This document shows, piece after piece, positions 317-53,241 of a DNA stretch of 64,000 bases. Below the pieces are notes generated by a model. That model saw only the letters and a list, made by a program, of their open reading frames with translations. It had not been told where the DNA came from and searched no databases. How positions within the stretch are numbered: the first letter of the stretch is position 1; each line of letters opens with the position of its first letter. Both the position numbers and the translations under genes were made by a program. This DNA comes from Vicinamibacterales bacterium (GTDB lineage Bacteria; Acidobacteriota; Vicinamibacteria; Vicinamibacterales; SCN-69-37), in contig DATKDT010000152.1 in the NCBI GenBank assembly GCA_035512575.1, positions 965-64,964 on the forward strand. The letters run 5' to 3'.

Positions 317-782
317 ACATGCTGCGAATGCGCTGGCGGCCGGCGAGCGCCGATTCGGCGCTGCGATCCAGCAGGCCGTCGATCGAGAGCTCACCCGCGC
401 CGCTGAGCGCCAGACAGACGCAGGATCCAATCAGGACGAAATGGAACTCGTAGCCGTGGCCGACGCCGGGCGTGAGCGCCCAGTTGATGAAGAAGCCGTG
501 CGCGATGTGGGCGACCCAGCCGGCCGCGGCCGTGCCGGCCGCAAGCGCGATGGCCGCCCCGCGCGTCCACGCGCCGAGAAAGACCATCAGCCCGCCGGCA
601 AGCTGCACCACACCCGAAACCACGGCGAGCGGATAGGCAGCGGGAAGGCCGAAATGCTCGTAGCGCGCCGCGGTGAACGCCAGGCCGGCGCCGCCGAAGA
701 CGCCGAACAGCGTCTGCGCCCCGTGCGCGATGAACACCAGGCCGACGGCCACGCGCAGCACGGTGAGACCCCAGCCAGCCAT
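315..782 (-). CDS. DoxX family membrane protein
   Basis: 155-aa ORF with four hydrophobic segments. N-terminus WGLTVLRVAVGLVFIAHGAQTLFG is typical of the DoxX family. ATG at 782, TAA at 315-317. Confidence 0.85.
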   Translation of the reverse strand: MAGWGLTVLRVAVGLVFIAHGAQTLFGVFGGAGLAFTAARYEHFGLPAAYPLAVVSGVVQLAGGLMVFLGAWTRGAAIALAAGTAAAGWVAHIAHGFFINWALTPGVGHGYEFHFVLIGSCVCLALSGAGELSIDGLLDRSAESALAGRQRIRSM

Positions 783-815
783 GGGGCCATTGTGCAGTAG
801 GATGGCCTTCCGTTC

Positions 816-842
816 CAGTTCCAGTTCCAGTTCTCAGTTCTG
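816..842. repeat. CCAGTT/GTTC tandem repeat, direct copy of 241-267
   Basis: CAGTTCCAGTTCCAGTTCTCAGTTCTG matches 241-267 at 26 of 27 positions. It lies in the divergent region between the doxX-like gene and the aminotransferase gene. Confidence 0.85.
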
Positions 843-858
843 CACACAGAGGCGCGCC

Positions 859-2136
859 ATGGACAGACGACGGTTTCTACGGCAGGCGGGCACGGCCGGT
901 GTGGTTGCGGCGGCGGCCTTCAGGGCTGACGGCCTCGCGCGGGTGCTCGCCGCCGGGCGCGACACGGCCGGGGCGGATCCCTCGGCCCTGGCGGCTGACG
1001 AGACATTCTGGCGCGAGATCCAGTCGGCCTTCACGCTCGACCGCACCATCATCAACCTGAACAACGGCGGCGTCTGCCCCAGCCCGCGCGTCGTGCACGA
1101 GGCGCTGAAGCGCTATCTGGACATCTCCAACCAGGCGCCCGTGTACCACATGTGGCAGGTGCTCGAGCCGAACATCGAGTCGGTGCGGCGCGCGCTCGCG
1201 GCGGAAGCCGGCTGCGGCGTCGAGGAGCTCGCGGTCACCCGCAACGCCAGCGAGGCGCTGCAGATCGCGCAGCTCGGCATCGACCTCGCGCCCGGCGACG
1301 AGGTGCTGTCCACCAACCAGGACTACGGCCGCATGCTCGACACCTGGGAGCAGCGCGTGCGCCGCGACCGCATCGTCCTCAACAAGATCGCGTTTCCGGT
1401 GCCGCCGCCGAGCCAGGCCGACCTCGTATCGCGGATCGAAAAGGGGATCACGCCGCGCACGAAGGTGCTGCACGTCTGCCACATCACGAACCTCACGGGC
1501 CACATTTTCCCGGTGCGGCAGATCTGCGACATCGCCCGCGCGCGCGGCATCGTGACGATCATCGACGGCGCGCACGCGTTCGGGCACTTTCCGTTCGCGC
1601 TCCGCGATCTCAACTGCGATTACTACGGCACGAGCCTGCACAAGTGGCTGCTGGCGCCCATCGGCACGGGGTTCCTGCACGTGCGGGCGGACCGGATTGC
1701 GAAGACGTGGGCCCTGCAGCCGACGGCGGCGTCGCGCGACGCCAACATCCGCAAGTTCGAGGAAATCGGGACGCACCCGGCCGCCAACCACAACGCCATT
1801 GCCGAGGCGCTGGTGTTCCATCAGGGCATCGGCATCGAGCGGCGCTACGCGCGGATGCTGTACCTGCGCAACCGCTGGATCGATCAGGTGAAGAGCGAGC
1901 CGCGCATCCGCATCCACACGAGCCTGCGGGAAGGCGAGTCGGGCGCGATCGGCACGGTGCAGATCACGGGCATGAAGACGCCCGAGGTCACCGCGAAGCT
2001 GTGGGAGCGCTGGCGCATCATTGCGACGCCGATCGTGCACGCGGAGTACGAGGGCGCGCGCGTGACGCCGAACGTCTACACCACGCTCGAGGAGATCGAC
2101 ACGTTCGCGGGCGCGCTGAAGACGCTCGCAACGTGA
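859..2136 (+). CDS. Class V aminotransferase / cysteine desulfurase-isopenicillin N epimerase-like PLP enzyme with twin-arginine (Tat) signal
   Basis: In-frame ATG at 859 within ORF 673..2136 gives MDRRRFLRQAGTAGVVAAAAF (Tat motif RRxFL). PLP-lysine context YGTSLHKWLLAP. The upstream 62 codons run through the repeat and look non-coding. Confidence 0.85.
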   Translation: MDRRRFLRQAGTAGVVAAAAFRADGLARVLAAGRDTAGADPSALAADETFWREIQSAFTLDRTIINLNNGGVCPSPRVVHEALKRYLDISNQAPVYHMWQVLEPNIESVRRALAAEAGCGVEELAVTRNASEALQIAQLGIDLAPGDEVLSTNQDYGRMLDTWEQRVRRDRIVLNKIAFPVPPPSQADLVSRIEKGITPRTKVLHVCHITNLTGHIFPVRQICDIARARGIVTIIDGAHAFGHFPFALRDLNCDYYGTSLHKWLLAPIGTGFLHVRADRIAKTWALQPTAASRDANIRKFEEIGTHPAANHNAIAEALVFHQGIGIERRYARMLYLRNRWIDQVKSEPRIRIHTSLREGESGAIGTVQITGMKTPEVTAKLWERWRIIATPIVHAEYEGARVTPNVYTTLEEIDTFAGALKTLAT

Positions 2137-15029: not shown

Positions 15030-16802
15030 ATGGACAGCGTCACGCTCACCATCGACGGCAAGCAGGTGTCGGTCCCCGCGGGGACCACGGTCCTGCAGGC
15101 CGCGATTCAGGCCGGGATTCAGATTCCCTACTACTGCTATCACCCCGGCCTCGGCATCGACGGCTCCTGCCGCGTGTGCATCGTCAAGATCGAGAAGATG
15201 CCGAAGCTGCAGACGTCGTGCTCGACGCCTTGCGCCGACGGCATGGTGGTGACGACGAATTCCGAGGACGTGGAAGCGGCGCGGGCGAGCGTGTTCGAGT
15301 TCCTGCTGATCAACCATCCGCTCGACTGTCCGGTCTGCGACAAGGGCGGCGAATGCCCGCTCCAGGATTTCTCCTACACGTTCGGGCCCGAGCGCAGCCG
15401 CATGGAGTTTCCGCGGCGCGAGTTCGACGGCAACGGCGTGCGCGCCGACGTCGACTTCGGGCCGACGCTGATGCTGAACCGCAACCGCTGCATCCTCTGC
15501 ACGCGCTGCGTGCGGTTCATGCGCGAGATCGACGGCGACGCGCAGATCAGCATCGTCAACCGCAGCTACGGCAGCGAGATTGCGACGTTCAGGGAGGAAG
15601 GCGTCCATTCGCTTCTCTCGGGCAACCTCATGGACGTCTGCCCGGTCGGCGCGATCACCACGCGCGACTACCGGTTCAAGTCGCGCCCGTGGGACAACCC
15701 GCTGGCCATCGACACGATCTGCACGCAGTGCGAGCGCGGCTGCAACACCACGCTCTGGATCAAGGCGAAGCCGGAATGGGCGAAAGGCGCCCAGGTGGTG
15801 CGCGCGACGCCGCGCTACAACCCCGACGTCAACGAGTTCTGGATGTGCGACATCGGCCGCTTCAATCTCGACTGGATCGAGAGCGAGCAGCGGCTGCGGC
15901 GCCCGCTCGTGAAGCGCGGCGGCGCGCTCGCGCCGGCAAACTGGGACGACGCGTTCCAGGCGCTGACGGCGGCGGTCGAAGGCGCGGGCGGCGCCCGGGC
16001 GGTGCGGTACCTCGCGTCGGCACACGCATCGCTCGAGGAGCTGCACCTGCTTGCGTCGCTGGCCGGCGGCGCCGGCAACGTGGCGGTCGGCTGGCGGTAC
16101 AGCCGCAAGCCGCAGCCCGAGGGCACGAAGTTCGTCGTGCCGCCGGTCGACGCGCCGAATCTGCGCGGCGCGCGCGATCTCGGCTTCAGGGTGCCGGCCG
16201 AGAGCGCGCCGGCGGATCTGTCGGCGCTCCGCGCCGACGTCGAAGGCGGCCGCGTGAAGGCGCTGTACGTCTTCGATCCCGGCCCGGACGGCTCGATCGG
16301 CGACCTCGAATGGATGCTGGCCGCGCGCCGCGCGGGCCGGCTGCCCGTCCTCGTGTACCAGGGCGTGCTGCTGACGCCGCTTGCCGCCGAAGCCGACATC
16401 GTCCTCCCCGGCGCGTGCTCCGCCGAGAAGGACGCGACCTACACGAACTCTCAGGGCCGCGTGCAGGCCACCGCACAGGCGATCACGCCGCCCGGAGACG
16501 CGCAGGAGGACTGGCGCATCTTCACGCGACTCGCCGGGGTGCTGGGCGCGCCGACCGCCTTCGCGAGCGCGCCCGCCATCCGCGAGAGCATCGCGTCGGG
16601 CACGCCCATTCCGGGCTACGAGGCGCTGAAGGCGGTCACGTTTCCCCGCCCCGTGCCGCAGCGCAGCTGGCTGCAGACATCGAACCCGTCGGAACGCTGG
16701 AAGTGGGACTTCATGTTCCAGGACCTGCCGCCCATCAAGTTCGGCGTGGAATTCGGCCCGCTGCCGCGCGCCGACGTCATCCCGCTGCGCGAAATTAAAT
16801 AA
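15030..16802 (+). CDS. NuoG-like Fe-S protein (NADH-quinone oxidoreductase subunit G / molybdopterin-oxidoreductase family), stand-alone
   Basis: N-terminal 2Fe-2S motif CYHPGLGIDGSCRVC, then HPLDCPVCDKGGECPLQD, CILCTRCVRF and CPVGAIT clusters. No other nuo genes in the window. Confidence 0.8.
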   Translation: MDSVTLTIDGKQVSVPAGTTVLQAAIQAGIQIPYYCYHPGLGIDGSCRVCIVKIEKMPKLQTSCSTPCADGMVVTTNSEDVEAARASVFEFLLINHPLDCPVCDKGGECPLQDFSYTFGPERSRMEFPRREFDGNGVRADVDFGPTLMLNRNRCILCTRCVRFMREIDGDAQISIVNRSYGSEIATFREEGVHSLLSGNLMDVCPVGAITTRDYRFKSRPWDNPLAIDTICTQCERGCNTTLWIKAKPEWAKGAQVVRATPRYNPDVNEFWMCDIGRFNLDWIESEQRLRRPLVKRGGALAPANWDDAFQALTAAVEGAGGARAVRYLASAHASLEELHLLASLAGGAGNVAVGWRYSRKPQPEGTKFVVPPVDAPNLRGARDLGFRVPAESAPADLSALRADVEGGRVKALYVFDPGPDGSIGDLEWMLAARRAGRLPVLVYQGVLLTPLAAEADIVLPGACSAEKDATYTNSQGRVQATAQAITPPGDAQEDWRIFTRLAGVLGAPTAFASAPAIRESIASGTPIPGYEALKAVTFPRPVPQRSWLQTSNPSERWKWDFMFQDLPPIKFGVEFGPLPRADVIPLREIK

Positions 16803-44597: not shown

Positions 44598-44864
44598 TCA
44601 GACTGTCGGCGCGACGGGCGCGCTCGCCTCGGCGAGGATGGTCACCCGGTCGGGCAGGACTTCGGCGAAGCCGCCCGAGATCTCGAGGTGGGTCTTGTCC
44701 TGTCCCTTGCGGTACCAGAGATCGCCGCTCTTGAGCGTCGCGAGCAGCGGCGTGTGGCCGGGCAGCACGCCGAGATAGCCGTCCTCGGCGGGCACCACGG
44801 CCTCGTCGACCTCCTCGCGCACGAGCACCCGCTCTGGCGTGACGATTTCGAGGCGGAACGGCAT
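44598..44864 (-). CDS. atpC: F1 ATP synthase epsilon subunit, short form (beta-sandwich only, 88 aa)
   Basis: LEIVTPERVL...VPAEDGYLGVLPGHTPLLATL...ISGGFAEVLPDRVTILAE, then a stop. No C-terminal helical hairpin is encoded. Confidence 0.85.
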   Translation of the reverse strand: MPFRLEIVTPERVLVREEVDEAVVPAEDGYLGVLPGHTPLLATLKSGDLWYRKGQDKTHLEISGGFAEVLPDRVTILAEASAPVAPTV

Positions 44865-44867
44865 GCG

Positions 44868-48749
<3,882 letters not shown>

Positions 48750-48752
48750 CGT

Positions 48753-49307
48753 CTACTGACCACTCTCTACCAACTGTTCCTTCATCTTTTCCAGCTGACG
48801 CGCGACGCTGCCGTCGTACACCACCGAGCCCACGCGCGCGACGACGCCGCCGAGGATCGCGGCGTCGACCTTGGACTCGACGAGCACCTGGCGGCCCGTG
48901 GCGCGGCCCAGCGCGTCGGCCACCGCCTTCGTCCGATCGGCGTCGAGCGGCACCGCCGTCGTCACCTCCGCGCGCACGATCTGGCGGTGATCCATCACGC
49001 GCTCGCCGTACGCGCGCGCGATGGCCGCAACGAGGCCGAGCCGATCGCGGTCGGCGAGCAAGCCCAGCGTGCGCGCGACGGGATCGGAGACGGCGCCCGC
49101 CTGTGCGACGAGCGCGTCGATGAGCGCGCGCTTCTTCGCGGCGGGCACCGCGGGATTCGTGATCACGGCGTGCAGGCCGGCGTTGCCCGAGACGAGCGCC
49201 GCGAAGTCGTCGAGCTCGCGTCCAATGCGATCGAGATCGCCGTTCTGCCGCAGCACGACGTCGAAGAGCGCGCGGGCGTAGCGGCGGGCCGCGGTGGCCG
49301 GGGTCAT
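48753..49307 (-). CDS. atpH: F1 ATP synthase delta (OSCP) subunit
   Basis: 184 aa. N-terminus ARRYARALFDV, and its position between atpF and atpA. Confidence 0.85.
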   Translation of the reverse strand: MTPATAARRYARALFDVVLRQNGDLDRIGRELDDFAALVSGNAGLHAVITNPAVPAAKKRALIDALVAQAGAVSDPVARTLGLLADRDRLGLVAAIARAYGERVMDHRQIVRAEVTTAVPLDADRTKAVADALGRATGRQVLVESKVDAAILGGVVARVGSVVYDGSVARQLEKMKEQLVESGQ

Positions 49308-49888
49308 GCGCGCACCTGCGTGAGATAGCGGTCGATGAGCCGCGTCTGATCCGCCGGCGTGATGTCGCGCTCGATGCGCGCCCGGGCGACGGCGGAGGCC
49401 TGCGCGGCGGTTTCTTCCACCAGCGCGCGGCGCGCCAGCCGGTACTGCTGATCGATTTCGCGCCGCGTCTGCGTGAGCAGGCGCTCGCGCTCGGCCGCGG
49501 CGGTCGCCTTGATGCGGGCCTGCTCGGCCTGCACTTCCCCGGCGCCGCGCGTCTTGAGCGCCTCGAGCTCGGCGGGCAGCGCCGCGAGCCGGCTTTCGAT
49601 GCGGGCGAGATCCGCCGACGCCTGCTCACGCGTGGCCTTCGCTTCGACCAGGGCGTGCCGGATCTGCTGGCTGCGGTCGACGAGATAGTTGGCGAGCGGG
49701 CGGCGGAGGAAGTGCACGAGGATGGCGACGAGCACCGCGAAGTTGAACAGCTTCGCGATGGTGGACATGATGCCGCCGCCTTCGGCCTCGGCCGCCAGCG
49801 CCTCCGACGGCGCGATCAGCACCACGATCAGCGCGAGTACAGCGCGGCGCGCAAGCGGCGCGCGACGGATTGCCATCCAGTTCTTCAT
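49304..49888 (-). CDS. atpF: Fo ATP synthase subunit b
   Basis: One TM segment followed by a long Ala/Arg/Glu-rich coiled coil. ATGA overlap with atpH. Confidence 0.8.
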   Translation of the reverse strand: MKNWMAIRRAPLARRAVLALIVVLIAPSEALAAEAEGGGIMSTIAKLFNFAVLVAILVHFLRRPLANYLVDRSQQIRHALVEAKATREQASADLARIESRLAALPAELEALKTRGAGEVQAEQARIKATAAAERERLLTQTRREIDQQYRLARRALVEETAAQASAVARARIERDITPADQTRLIDRYLTQVRA

Positions 49889-49922
49889 GAACCCGTTACC
49901 TGACGTTCGGAAGGAGCGGCGC

Positions 49923-50348
49923 CTACGACGCCTGGCGTCCCAGAATGCGGCCCGCCGCCTCGGCGCCGAGCTTCTCGGCGTCGCCGCGCAGCTGGGCGCG
50001 CGCCTGGTCGACGTCGGCCTGCAGTTTCGCGCTCGCCTCGGCCAGCGCCGACGCCGCGTCGGCGCGCGTCTCGTCGAGCAGCTTCGCGCGCTCGTCGTTG
50101 GCGACCCGCCGCATGTCGTCCATCTGCCGGTAGACCTCGCCGCGCGCTTCGGCGGTCTTCCGTTCGAATTCCTCGGTCGCCGTGCGCGCTTCGGCCGCGG
50201 CGCGCTCGGCCAGCGCGCGCGCCGAATCGATCGCCTGCTGGCGCGCTTCCATCGTGTTCGTCAGCGGCTTGATCAACAGTCGATTGACGACGAAGGTCAG
50301 GACGAGGACGAAGAAGATGACCCAGAGCAGGGAAAGATTCAGTTCCAA
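49923..50348 (-). CDS. Fo ATP synthase subunit b' (second b-type subunit)
   Basis: 141 aa with N-terminal TM LLWVIFFVLVLTFVVNRLL followed by a coiled coil. TTG start. Confidence 0.7.
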   Translation of the reverse strand: MELNLSLLWVIFFVLVLTFVVNRLLIKPLTNTMEARQQAIDSARALAERAAAEARTATEEFERKTAEARGEVYRQMDDMRRVANDERAKLLDETRADAASALAEASAKLQADVDQARAQLRGDAEKLGAEAAGRILGRQAS

Positions 50349-50421: not shown

Positions 50422-51468
50422 TCACAGAAGCCGGACGTGCACGCCCGGCTCCGCCTCGACGGCACGGCCCACGGCATGCCCGCCGGCGCCTGCGGCGGCC
50501 AGATGGGCCCTAAGTTCTTCAAGATGAGCGGGTTGTACTGAAATCAGCAGCCCGCCGGACGTCTGCGGGTCAAACGCCACGAGCCGGCGCGCGCGGCTGA
50601 CGGTTGAGGCGGTCTGCACGCCTCCTCCGAAGTGGGCGTCGTTACTGCGGCCGCCGCCCGGCAGGTTGTCCTCCGCAAGCGCTTCGACGCCCTCGAGCAT
50701 CGGCAGCGCTGCGGCGTCGAGCACCAGCGTCACGCCGCTCGCCGCCGCCATCTCCGAGCCATGCCCGGCAAGGCCGAAACCGGTGATGTCGGTACACGCC
50801 CGGACGGCGCCGGGCGGCAGCTTCGCGATCGCTTCCGCGGCGCCCCGGTTGAGCGCGGTCATGCTGGCGACCGCCGCGTCGGCCGACGCCTGCGGCGCGC
50901 GATCGAATTTCATGGCCGTCGCAATGATGCCGGTGCCGAGCGCCTTGGTGAGCACCAGCACGTCGCCTGGCCGCGCGCCGCTGTTGGTGAGTACTTGCGT
51001 CGGATCGATCGCGCCGGTGATCGCATAGCCGAACTTGATCTCCACATCGGACACCGTGTGCCCGCCAAGCAGCGCGACGCCCGCTTCGCGCAGCGTGTCG
51101 TGGCCGCCGAGAAAGATCTGGCGGATCACGTCGGCGCCGGGACCGTCCTTCGCCGGCAGCGCCGCAATCGCCAGGGCCGTGAGCGGCCGGCCGCCCATCG
51201 CGTAGACGTCGCTCATCGCGTTGGCGGCGGCAATGCGTCCGTACGTATAGGGATCGTCGACAACCGGCGTGAAGAAATCCACCGTCTGCACCAGCGCCGG
51301 GCCCCCCTCCCACCTGTACACACCCGCATCGTCCGCGGTCCTGAAGTCGACGAGGACACGGTCATCGGTGGTGTGAGGAATGGCGCCCAGCACCTGGGCG
51401 AGCTCGCCCGCGGCGAGTTTGCTCGCTCAACCCGCGCAGGCGGCGTAGCTGGTCAGTCGTCTGGTCAT
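50422..51468 (-). CDS. selD: Selenide, water dikinase SelD, selenocysteine-containing form (in-frame UGA at 51427-51429)
   Basis: Reading from ATG 51468 gives MTRRLTSYAACAG-U-ASKLAAGELAQVLGAIPHTTDD..., in frame with ORF 50422..51393. The UGA sits at the catalytic Cys/Sec position with Lys at +3, as in the E. coli/H. influenzae GAG(C/U)GCK motif. Confidence 0.85.
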
Positions 51469-52316
51469 TCGGTCAACTTTTCGAAAATGCGGTTCAACTC
51501 GTCTTCGCTCGTGAACTCTATCTGGATTCGTCCTCCTTTACCCCGCCGCACGATCTCGACGTCGGTGCCGAGCGCGAAGCGCAGTTTCTCTTCGGCGGCG
51601 CGCGTGTTCGGGTCCTTCTTCCTTTCCGGCTTCGCCGGCGCCGCGGGCTCGCCCTGGCGTTTGACGAACGCCTCGGTCTCGCGCACCGACAGGCCTTTGG
51701 CCACGATGTCTCGCGCGAGCTGGCGCTGCGCGGCGGGCGACTCCAGCCCGAGCAGGGCGCGCGCGTGGCCCATCGAGAGCGATCCGTCCGACACGAGATT
51801 GCGTACTTCGCCGGGCAGCCGCAGCAGGCGCAGCGTGTTGGCGACCGACGATCGATCCTTTCCTACCGCCGCCGCAATCGCGTCCTGGGTCAGGTGCAGC
51901 TCGTCGGCCAGACGCCGATACGCCGAGGCTTCTTCGATTGGATTGAGATCGTCGCGCTGAAGATTCTCGACGAGCGCCACTTCGAGCAGCCGGTCATCGG
52001 GCACGTCGCGGACGATGACGGGCACCTTCAGGAGGCCGGCGCGCTGGGCCGCGCGCCAGCGGCGCTCGCCCGCGATGATCTCGAATCGATCGCCGGCGCG
52101 GCGCGCCAGAATCGGCTGGATGATGCCGTTGCTGCGAATCGACTGCGCGAGATGCTCGAGGCTCGCCTCGTCGAACACGCTGCGCGGCTGCTGTGGATTG
52201 GGCGTGAGCCGATCGAGATCGATCTCGAACGGCTTGTCGCGCGGCGGCGCGTCGCCGGCCGCGTCGGGAATCAGCGCGCTCAGCCCGCGTCCGAGCGCGG
52301 GACGTTTCTCAGCCAT
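51465..52316 (-). CDS. parB: Chromosome partitioning protein ParB/Spo0J
   Basis: ATG 52316 within ORF 51465..52397. RGLSALI, GERRWRAA and the HTH LTQDAIAAAVGKDRSSVANTLRLL. Confidence 0.9.
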   Translation of the reverse strand: MAEKRPALGRGLSALIPDAAGDAPPRDKPFEIDLDRLTPNPQQPRSVFDEASLEHLAQSIRSNGIIQPILARRAGDRFEIIAGERRWRAAQRAGLLKVPVIVRDVPDDRLLEVALVENLQRDDLNPIEEASAYRRLADELHLTQDAIAAAVGKDRSSVANTLRLLRLPGEVRNLVSDGSLSMGHARALLGLESPAAQRQLARDIVAKGLSVRETEAFVKRQGEPAAPAKPERKKDPNTRAAEEKLRFALGTDVEIVRRGKGGRIQIEFTSEDELNRIFEKLTE

Positions 52317-52329
52317 CACGACAACTCCA

Positions 52330-52392
52330 AACTCAGAACACAGAACGTAGAACTCAGAACGCCGAACTCCGAACGCCGAACGCCGAACGTCG
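52330..52392. repeat. CAGAACR / GCCGAAC heptamer tandem repeats at the parA-parB junction
   Basis: AACTCAGAACACAGAACGTAGAACTCAGAACGCCGAACTCCGAACGCCGAACGCCGAACGTCG. It overlaps the last ~12 codons of parA. Confidence 0.85.
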
Positions 52393-53160
52393 AGCAAGGA
52401 ACTCTTTCGCGAGCGCGACGTGGGCTTCGGCGCCGCGGCTCTTCACGTCGTAGAGGATGGCCGGCAGGCCGTGGCTGGGCGCCTCGCCGAGCCGGATGTT
52501 GCGCGGGATCACGGTCTCGTAGACCTTGTCGCCGAAGTACTCGCGGATGTTGGCGCCGACCTGCTGTCCCAGGTTCGTGCGCTCGTCGTACATCGTCAGC
52601 AGCACGCCTTCGATCTCGAGGCGCGGATTGAGCGCGCCGCGCACGCGCTTGATGGTCGAGACGAGCTCGGCGATGCCCTCGAGCGCGAAGTACTCGCAGT
52701 TGAGGGGAATCAGCACGCTGTCGGCGGCGACGAGCGCGTTGAGCGTGAGCAGGCCCAGCGAGGGTGGCGAGTCGATCAGGATGTAGTCGAATGCCGGGCG
52801 CAGGGGCGTGAGCACGCGCTCGAGCCGGCGCTCGCGCTCAGGCAGCGAGACGAGCTCGATTTCGGCGCCCGTGAGGTTGCGGTCGGCGGGCATCACGAAG
52901 AGCCGCTCGATCATCGAGCGCACGATGCGGTCGCCGTGCCGGGTGTCCTCGCCGGTAATGGCCTCGTAGACCGTGCCGCCGGGCCCGGTCTGGTTCTTGA
53001 GGCCGAGGCCGCTCGTCAGGTTGGCCTGGGGGTCCATGTCGACGACGAGCACCTGCTGGTCGGCGAGGGCGAGGGAGGCGGCCAGATTGATGGCGGTGGT
53101 GGTCTTGGCGACGCCACCTTTCTGGTTGGCGACGGCAATGATCCTCGCTGTTTTGGTCAT
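52354..53160 (-). CDS. parA: Chromosome partitioning ATPase ParA/Soj
   Basis: Deviant Walker A IAVANQKGGVAKTTT. The C-terminal tail RRSAFGVRSSAF is encoded by the heptamer repeat. Confidence 0.9.
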   Translation of the reverse strand: MTKTARIIAVANQKGGVAKTTTAINLAASLALADQQVLVVDMDPQANLTSGLGLKNQTGPGGTVYEAITGEDTRHGDRIVRSMIERLFVMPADRNLTGAEIELVSLPERERRLERVLTPLRPAFDYILIDSPPSLGLLTLNALVAADSVLIPLNCEYFALEGIAELVSTIKRVRGALNPRLEIEGVLLTMYDERTNLGQQVGANIREYFGDKVYETVIPRNIRLGEAPSHGLPAILYDVKSRGAEAHVALAKEFLARRSAFGVRSSAF

Positions 53161-53241
53161 ACAACAGAAAACAAGATGACTGATCGGTCCCGCAGCAAAG
53201 TGTAGGCGGGTTGGGCGTGGGGCGTCAAATCAATTGATGGG

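Follow-up and report, generated by a model that had tools for sequence, protein, structure and literature searches.

A Sec-type selD gene behind parB in a Vicinamibacterales genome and its probable SECIS hairpin

A selD gene, predicted to encode a selenophosphate synthetase of the selenocysteine (Sec) type, lies directly behind parB on the minus strand of a 64-kb stretch of DNA from an uncultured Vicinamibacterales bacterium (the window, by which we mean the whole stretch analysed). The best joint explanation of this locus, to which we assign a probability of roughly 0.88, is that the gene is a Sec-type selD, that a conserved hairpin downstream of its in-frame UGA, termed HP2, is most likely the SECIS, and that initiation probably depends on parB. 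Homology to SelD, the position of the UGA, protein conservation upstream of this codon and RNA conservation with covariation downstream of it are direct observations; Sec insertion, SelB binding to HP2, a spacing role for a second hairpin (HP1) and translational coupling are inferences. Coordinates are collected in Table 1.

Table 1. Features of the selD locus and its surroundings, numbered from the first letter of the window.
Feature	Coordinates	Strand	Description	Basis
selD, full length	50422-51468	-	348 codons including the predicted Sec codon; stop TGA 50424-50422	Translation, TIGR00476 match, alignment with E. coli SelD 3u0o
selD start ATG	51466-51468	-	Its TG also belongs to the parB stop TGA (51467-51465), giving ATGA	Sequence
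In-frame UGA (Sec, predicted)	51427-51429	-	Corresponds to Cys17 of E. coli SelD	3u0o and 2yye alignments, column of relatives
AAA codon, catalytic Lys	51418-51420	-	Three residues after Sec; corresponds to E. coli Lys20	
HP1	51403-51417	-	CUCGCC-GCG-GGCGAG; lineage-specific, probably a spacer or accessory helix; -8.2 kcal/mol	
HP2	51384-51400	-	CGCCCAG-GUG-CUGGGCG; most likely the conserved bacterial SECIS core, presumed SelB-binding hairpin; -11.2 kcal/mol	Covariation, RNAalifold
parB	51465-52397	-	5' end uncertain; stop overlaps selD start	TIGR00180 ParB, E = 2e-56
parA	52354-53160	-	Upstream of parB	ParA/RepA-family matches
Promoter-like site	53199-53228	-	TTGACG, 18 nt, TACACT; between rsmG and parA	Consensus scan, pattern match only
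atpF' (F0 subunit b')	49923-50348	-	73 nt downstream of selD	NCBIfam subunit B/B' matches and synteny
dnaA	60483-61883	+		

The selD gene and its junction with parB

The open reading frame list places selD at a GTG codon (50422..51393, 323 aa), and the initial annotation proposed that the frame stays open upstream of 51393, through a TGA, to ATG 51468. Translation bears this out: the minus strand from 51468 to 50422 reads MTRRLTSYAACAG*ASKLAAGEL..., continues after TGA 51429-51427 as ASKLAAGELAQVLG... and meets its next stop only at 50424-50422. All selD and parB coordinates proposed at that stage are correct on the minus strand, as judged from sequence and translation. Upstream of the TGA the frame is closed by a stop 111 nt away, and within this interval ATG 51468 is the sole start codon. 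Relatives of the gene were gathered by scanning one genome per species, which yielded 80 loci, the nearest (60-68% identity) from metagenome-assembled genomes (MAGs) of Vicinamibacterales and other Acidobacteriota and the farther ones from Chloroflexota, Desulfobacterota, Gemmatimonadota, and other phyla. More than 20 of these relatives start selD at the equivalent site, 39 nt (13 codons) before the UGA, and many carry a GAAAGGAGG ribosome-binding site a few bases before that ATG or GTG. A protein begun at 51393, by comparison, would be missing the catalytic loop with its Sec/Cys and Lys residues. In the databases, the closest proteins (77-94% identity) are without exception calls of 322-323 aa that begin MLG.. 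and are cut at the same GUG; an exact-sequence look-up of the 323-aa ORF retrieved no record.

Profile searches and alignments were run with the 348-residue product, Cys being written at the TGA. The TIGR00476 selD profile matches residues 4-314 with E = 2.4e-104 and 348.9 bits (cutoff 125), NF002098 matches with 305.1 bits (cutoff 299), and homologues carry PF00586 and PF02769 (PurM-like AIRS and AIRS_C domains). E. coli SelD (3u0o) aligns over residues 4-342 with E = 8e-63, placing the TGA on Cys17 and the downstream Lys on Lys20, and the Asp-containing ATP/metal motifs DDAGVY, VDFFTP, SDVYAMGG, and TDITGFG are conserved in the same alignment. The Aquifex aeolicus SelD chains 2yye and 2zod align ..SSGCAAK.. 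with the ..CAG-U-ASK.. of the window; in the native Aquifex enzyme the residue aligned with the UGA is Sec. The proposal that the UGA occupies the catalytic Cys/Sec position with a conserved Lys at +3 thus agrees with the 3u0o alignment and with 78 relatives, and alignment with Sec- and Cys-type SelD proteins identifies the N-terminal extension as homologous to their glycine-rich loop. The assignment of the gene as a Sec-type selenophosphate synthetase SelD beginning at ATG 51468 is, on this sequence evidence, well supported.

On the strand opposite dnaA, the window carries yidC, mnmE, mnmG, rsmG, parA, parB, and selD, followed by atpF', atpF, atpH, atpA, atpD, and atpC; in one relative, atpG occupies the position matching the ORF between the atpA and atpD of the window. 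The gene lies ~9 kb from dnaA, as expected from its description as origin-proximal, and its place as third gene behind parA and parB holds in the window and class-wide. The order mnmG-rsmG-parA-parB-selD, with the atp genes wherever the contig is long enough, recurs in ~40 Vicinamibacteria species representatives, with Sec-type and Cys-type selD alike, so that a context first described as unusual is standard for the class. Beyond it, mnmG-parA-parB-selD was also found in one Pyrinomonadaceae MAG, and among the scanned relatives outside Acidobacteriota the parA-parB-selD order was not found. A consensus scan returned one promoter-like site where 0.2 were expected, a weak pattern match and the sole candidate found for parA-parB-selD, and a similarly weak pattern scan found no terminator-like site in the gap between selD and atpF'. 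A link of selD to the nearby mnmE and mnmG through the selenouridine pathway was considered and set aside, there being no selU/ybbB in the window; mnmE and mnmG are origin-proximal in most bacteria. A functional role for the placement of selD, if there is one, would link selenium activation to an origin-proximal, segregation-linked operon.

At the junction itself, parB ends and selD begins within the 4-nt overlap ATGA at 51468-51465, and the 21 nt before the selD ATG (cattttcgaaaagttgaccgaATG) contain no GGAG, GAGG, or AGGA and no Shine-Dalgarno-like sequence. This combination makes co-transcription with parA-parB and parB-dependent initiation probable: ribosomes terminating at parB would reinitiate at the overlapping start codon. 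The translational coupling claimed at the outset thus has local backing in the overlap and the lack of a Shine-Dalgarno sequence, whereas its conservation does not hold up. Besides the window, only two relatives overlap, one with ATGA and one with TTGA, and in the others the gap between parB stop and selD start ranges from 2 nt to ~710 nt, many of these loci having GAAAGGAGG. Of the features that mark coupled gene pairs, the overlapping stop and start and the missing ribosome-binding site are therefore present here, and conservation in orthologous loci is absent. Because relatives mostly have gaps and strong ribosome-binding sites of their own, parB-selD coupling is plausible as a local feature of this genome. 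That selD is instead translated independently of parB, the ATGA reflecting mere compact gene packing, is possible and carries real weight, given that most relatives, with their gap and their own strong site, generally have no need of coupling; without a Shine-Dalgarno sequence or a spacer, however, the window would offer only a weak de novo 30S site, which favors parB-dependent initiation here.

Hairpins downstream of the UGA

The initial annotation pointed to three GC hairpins 3' of the UGA that could serve as a bacterial SECIS; folded singly, they reach -5.8, -8.2, and -8.8 to -11.2 kcal/mol. Their fates differ. The third, CCCAGGUGCUGGG, stands when extended to 51400-51384 (HP2), with compensatory changes across phyla and agreement with SECIS rules. 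The second (HP1) is conserved in Vicinamibacteria, and its register differs in other phyla. The first, GCGAG-CAAA-CUCGC, shows no covariation beyond that of shuffles and uses as its 3' arm a strand that HP1 also needs, making the two mutually exclusive; as a SECIS candidate it was dropped.

Covariation was assessed in an ungapped alignment of 72 nt around the codon from 62 Sec-type and 17 Cys-type genes. Across the 62 Sec-type genes, 89.2% of the cells in HP2 (alignment columns 36-52) are paired, and individual pairs have been exchanged repeatedly, with U-A in 22, C-G in 17, and G-C in 15 genes at pair 39-49, and C-G in 34 and G-C in 17 at pair 36-52. Scored jointly, HP1 and HP2 exceeded all 500 shuffles, and pairing fell from 83% to 32-45% once the partner columns were slid. 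The HP2 columns of the 17 Cys-type genes are paired at 46%, the chance level given by the shuffled and slid controls. RNAalifold found HP2 independently. An Ala codon has its wobble base in column 39, and column 49 holds the first base of a Ser/Gly/Arg codon five residues on, so that a synonymous site tracks a non-synonymous one 10 nt away and protein-level selection cannot account for the covariation. Within the Vicinamibacteria tree the swap from U-A to C-G occurred at least 5 times, with no unpaired intermediates seen, and this repeated compensatory evolution within the class implies that a SelB-type reader still exerts selection. The loop bases G43 and U44 are each conserved at 90% or more.

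Constraint on the RNA also shows at synonymous sites: across codons +1 to +13, the third positions in Vicinamibacteria are nearly frozen, with entropies of 0-0.7 bits where later codons have 1.2-1.9 bits. Only column 39, which covaries, and the third loop bases of HP1 (1.98 bits) and HP2 (1.24 bits) depart from this pattern. These comparisons indicate that HP1 and HP2 are both under RNA-level selection in Vicinamibacteria and that HP2 alone is common to all sampled Sec-type selD genes.

The bacterial SECIS rules of bSECISearch, as summarised in PMC13188914, were applied by hand. They call for 3-9 nt in the loop, 4-16 bp in the stem, a spacing of 16-37 nt, and a minimum free energy (MFE) of at most -7.5 kcal/mol, with a loop pattern N1-G-[G/U]-N-N2 and G within the first two loop positions (PMC13188914). 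HP2, which starts 26 nt past the UGA, passes all four rules with a 3-nt loop, a 7-bp stem, a spacing of 33 nt, and -11.2 kcal/mol, and its loop can also be read as the 5 nt G-G-U-G-C with N1 paired to N2. The loop GUG (51393-51391) is the very codon that ORF finders picked as a false start. Single-sequence folding is uninformative by comparison: the 68 nt after the UGA give z = -1.3 against shuffles, which is not significant, and 31 of the 1455 TGA trinucleotides of the window (2%; the window is 68% G+C) precede, at SECIS-like spacing, a hairpin with a G[G/U] loop and 7 bp or more. As the single-sequence fold is within chance, it was dropped as evidence, and the comparative data carry the case. 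No SECIS family emerged from Rfam searches, whether of the complete window at gathering thresholds or of 51300-51500 with E relaxed to 10, and the matches were at chance level alone. Taken on the comparative evidence, HP2 (51400-51384) is most likely a bacterial SECIS that lies inside the coding sequence and directs Sec decoding; SelB with GTP and Sec-tRNA(Sec) would bind its apical region.

A different assignment of the SelB-binding element, with Sec still inserted and HP2 an accessory or alternative fold, is unlikely but has some support. Beginning 9 nt past the UGA, HP1 is closer in geometry to E. coli fdhF, and it is nearly invariant in Vicinamibacteria, with the third loop base alone free. 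A long hairpin running from the UGA (51429 to 51395, apical loop GCG 51411-51409), likewise nearer to the fdhF geometry, is often the MFE fold in Vicinamibacteria, and 77% of its cells are paired. The register of HP1 varies outside the class, however, where a hairpin at the same place is shifted by ~1.5 nt (e.g., GGGCC-CUGA-GGCCC); HP1 also has a G-C-N loop in place of G-[G/U] and, at 15 nt, a spacing slightly short of the permitted 16-37 nt. In the long hairpin, pair 9-39 is lost in 39 of the 62 sequences, since column 39 varies with its HP2 partner, column 49, instead. HP2 is accordingly preferred as the SECIS, and HP1, which when folded leaves 9 + 2 unpaired nt between the UGA and HP2, may be a structured spacer, a speculative role. 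A more ambitious generalization, that throughout Vicinamibacteria selD is fixed behind parA-parB at the origin and before atp, with a SECIS made of two hairpins in which HP1 spaces HP2 33 nt from the UGA, strikes us as quite improbable as a whole; if the two-hairpin geometry were required, it would represent a distinct architectural class of bacterial SECIS.

Reading of the in-frame UGA

In the column aligned with the UGA, the 80 related genomes have TGA in 61 distinct sequences and TGC or TGT in 17, the flanking peptide RLT...[C/A][A/S]G-[U/C]-[A/G]xK being kept on both sides, and a neighbour-joining protein tree needs ~9 switches between Sec and Cys. Codons -10 to -1 retain the residues R-L-T-x-x-x-[A/S]-C-[A/S]-G in the 37 distinct Vicinamibacteria sequences, and within the conserved codons of this stretch the third positions reach entropies of up to 1.9 bits while the first and second stay at ~0. 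Free third positions beside fixed first and second positions indicate that the region before the TGA is translated. The Lys three residues after Sec is invariant (37/37). Selenoprotein genes are recognized by an in-frame UGA aligned with Cys in homologues and coding conservation on both flanks, and the window gene displays this pattern. The UGA would then be decoded as Sec within the N-terminal glycine-rich catalytic loop, ..CAG-U-ASK...

The initial annotation further held that the organism decodes Sec, with selA, selB, and selC elsewhere in the genome. No tRNA genes were found in the 64-kb window, and no SelA, SelB, or YbbB domains among the ~50 ORFs scanned. Another in-frame TGA gene with a qualifying hairpin was not found in the window either, by a crude scan whose upstream G+C filter missed selD too. 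A tRNA-Sec gene adjoins TGA-type selD in two distant relatives only, one Gemmatimonadaceae and one Deltaproteobacteria locus; the ORFs beside it proved unrelated to selenium, encoding phosphofructokinase, DNA methyltransferase, glutamate racemase, and TatD. From the repeated compensatory changes in the hairpin within the class, Sec decoding by this organism can soundly be inferred.

Two readings without Sec were weighed. Read-through of the UGA, or its reassignment to a standard amino acid such as Trp, Cys, or Gly, with no Sec machinery involved would fit the absence of that machinery from the window, yet it is very improbable. TGA is the commonest ordinary stop there, ending 28 of the 40 confidently called genes, which marks it as a codon without genome-wide reassignment; the UGA site swaps solely with Cys codons; and confinement of the compensatory hairpin to TGA-type genes fits SelB-dependent decoding, unlike passive read-through. 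Least probable of all is a true stop, leaving a pseudogene or an N-terminally truncated SelD from GTG 51393, since, for all that the ORF list and the closest database entries (322-323 aa, MLG..) begin there, such a protein would be without the glycine-rich loop bearing the catalytic Sec/Cys and Lys, the TGA is kept in 61 distinct sequences behind 10 codons under protein-level selection, the ribosome-binding site and start codon of relatives stand 39 nt before it, and GTG 51393 is a Val codon in the HP2 loop with no ribosome-binding site before it.

Significance and relation to known systems

Sec-type SelD is itself already well known, and the present locus leaves knowledge of Sec decoding unchanged. 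Sec-type proteins account for 19% of the prokaryotic selD genes surveyed, with Sec always at the same position (PMC4561486); SelD and FdhA are the most widespread bacterial selenoproteins (PMC1794560), and SelD is the second largest prokaryotic selenoprotein family (PMC13188914). A literature search found no mention of selenoproteins in Vicinamibacteria, and the Vicinamibacteria lineage and the parB-selD-atp arrangement thus constitute a new record of a known kind of gene.

The main value is in annotation. Selenoprotein genes are commonly mis-annotated (PMC4561486), and here the close database homologues begin at a GUG in the presumed SECIS loop and are missing the catalytic loop; because they are recorded in this form, selenium use in Vicinamibacteria, which are abundant soil bacteria, is likely under-reported. 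A practical use would be the mending of systematic selD truncation in MAG annotations. The locus also offers a clean comparative case of an RNA signal within a coding sequence, in which synonymous sites are frozen save in the loops and the signal is lost in Cys-type genes.

Sec-containing SelD enzymes are exemplified by those of Aquifex aeolicus and Haemophilus influenzae. The window gene shares with this family (described in PMC1794560 and PMC4561486) the enzyme type, a single Sec site in the N-terminal glycine-rich loop, the placement of the presumed SECIS within the coding sequence just past the UGA, and the truncation that gene callers typically introduce. It differs in its uncultured Vicinamibacterales host, in the position of selD right behind parB at the replication origin, and in the lineage-specific additional hairpin between the UGA and the conserved one. 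E. coli SelD, in contrast, has Cys (Cys17) where the window has UGA, and is without a SECIS. The ATGA junction resembles the coupling seen in many bacterial operons in its 4-nt overlap and in the lack of a Shine-Dalgarno sequence before the downstream gene, and it differs in that the overlap is not conserved among orthologous loci.

The closest parallel for the RNA element is the SECIS of E. coli fdhF, likewise a stem-loop that follows the UGA within the coding region. In fdhF, G23 and U24 of the loop ..GCA-GGUC-UGC.. contact SelB, and the apical A-GGU-N-C-U of HP2 resembles this loop, although no bulged U is evident in HP2, unlike in fdhF and the general SECIS model. The minimal fdhF SECIS begins ~11 nt after the UGA, whereas HP2 begins 26 nt after it, and the 15-nt hairpin between the two takes up the difference.

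Synonymous-site constraint and annotation of selD

In the 13 codons directly 3′ of the in-frame UGA of selD (window 51384-51426, minus strand), synonymous sites are almost frozen across 37 Vicinamibacteria sequences, as assessed by comparison of this segment with the related loci L001-L044 and L057. The variable exceptions are the third loop base of each of the two hairpins that follow the UGA and one covarying stem column. The matching segment diverges freely in Cys-type relatives of the same order, which carry TGC or TGT at the catalytic position.

The closest SelD homologues in the databases (P0001-P0031; 77-94% identity) are all gene calls of 322-323 residues with the N-terminus MLG..., corresponding to a GUG Val codon at window 51391-51393 (minus strand), which forms the apical loop of the presumed SECIS hairpin. 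Since every one of these calls begins from the SECIS-loop GUG, annotations of MAGs from this lineage systematically truncate Sec-type selD.

Genes flanking selD

The mechanically called parB ORF begins at TTG 52397 and thus shares 44 nt with the 3′ end of parA (window 52354-52397, minus strand), and the actual parB start therefore probably lies farther downstream; in the relative L001, parB is called 36 nt after parA. On the 3′ side of selD, an ATP synthase cluster displays the order two b-type subunit genes, delta, alpha, gamma, beta, and epsilon, with the gamma gene called in L001 and presumed for the matching window ORF. Given that no a or c subunit gene is found between selD and atpF′ in the window, the F0 a/c genes must be sited elsewhere. 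Their usual place is taken by selD.

Features of the window and of related selD loci
Feature	Location	Strand	Description
ATP synthase cluster	window 44598-50348	minus	3′ of selD; counterpart L001 11056-17105
Class-V aminotransferase, 487 aa	window 673-2136	plus	PF00266 (cysteine desulfurase / selenocysteine lyase fold)
NuoG / formate-dehydrogenase-like protein, stand-alone, 590 aa	window 15030-16802	plus	2Fe-2S + 4Fe-4S domains
tRNA-Sec (anticodon TCA)	L051 5364-5462		~30 nt downstream of TGA-type selD; Gemmatimonadaceae MAG
tRNA-Sec (anticodon TCA)	L047 6989-7084		1.3 kb downstream of TGA-type selD; Deltaproteobacteria MAG

Other genes of the window

The class-V aminotransferase possesses an N-terminal extension of ~125 residues; because 49 kb separate the two genes, no link to selD is implied. 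The NuoG/formate-dehydrogenase-like gene contains no in-frame TGA, its product shows only a short molybdopterin-domain match, and in place of nuo genes it is bordered by genes for an M1 peptidase and for a membrane protein resembling DsbD.

tRNA-Sec and Cys-type SelD in relatives

Two distant relatives encode tRNA-Sec near selD. The ORFs checked around these tRNA genes included none related to selenium, encoding instead phosphofructokinase, glutamate racemase, TatD, and a DNA methyltransferase. Among Cys-type homologues, some (P0038 and P0048) still show the exact Sec-type peptide, CAG-C-ASKLAAGELAQVLS, and may represent recent Sec-to-Cys conversions still bearing a fossil SECIS.
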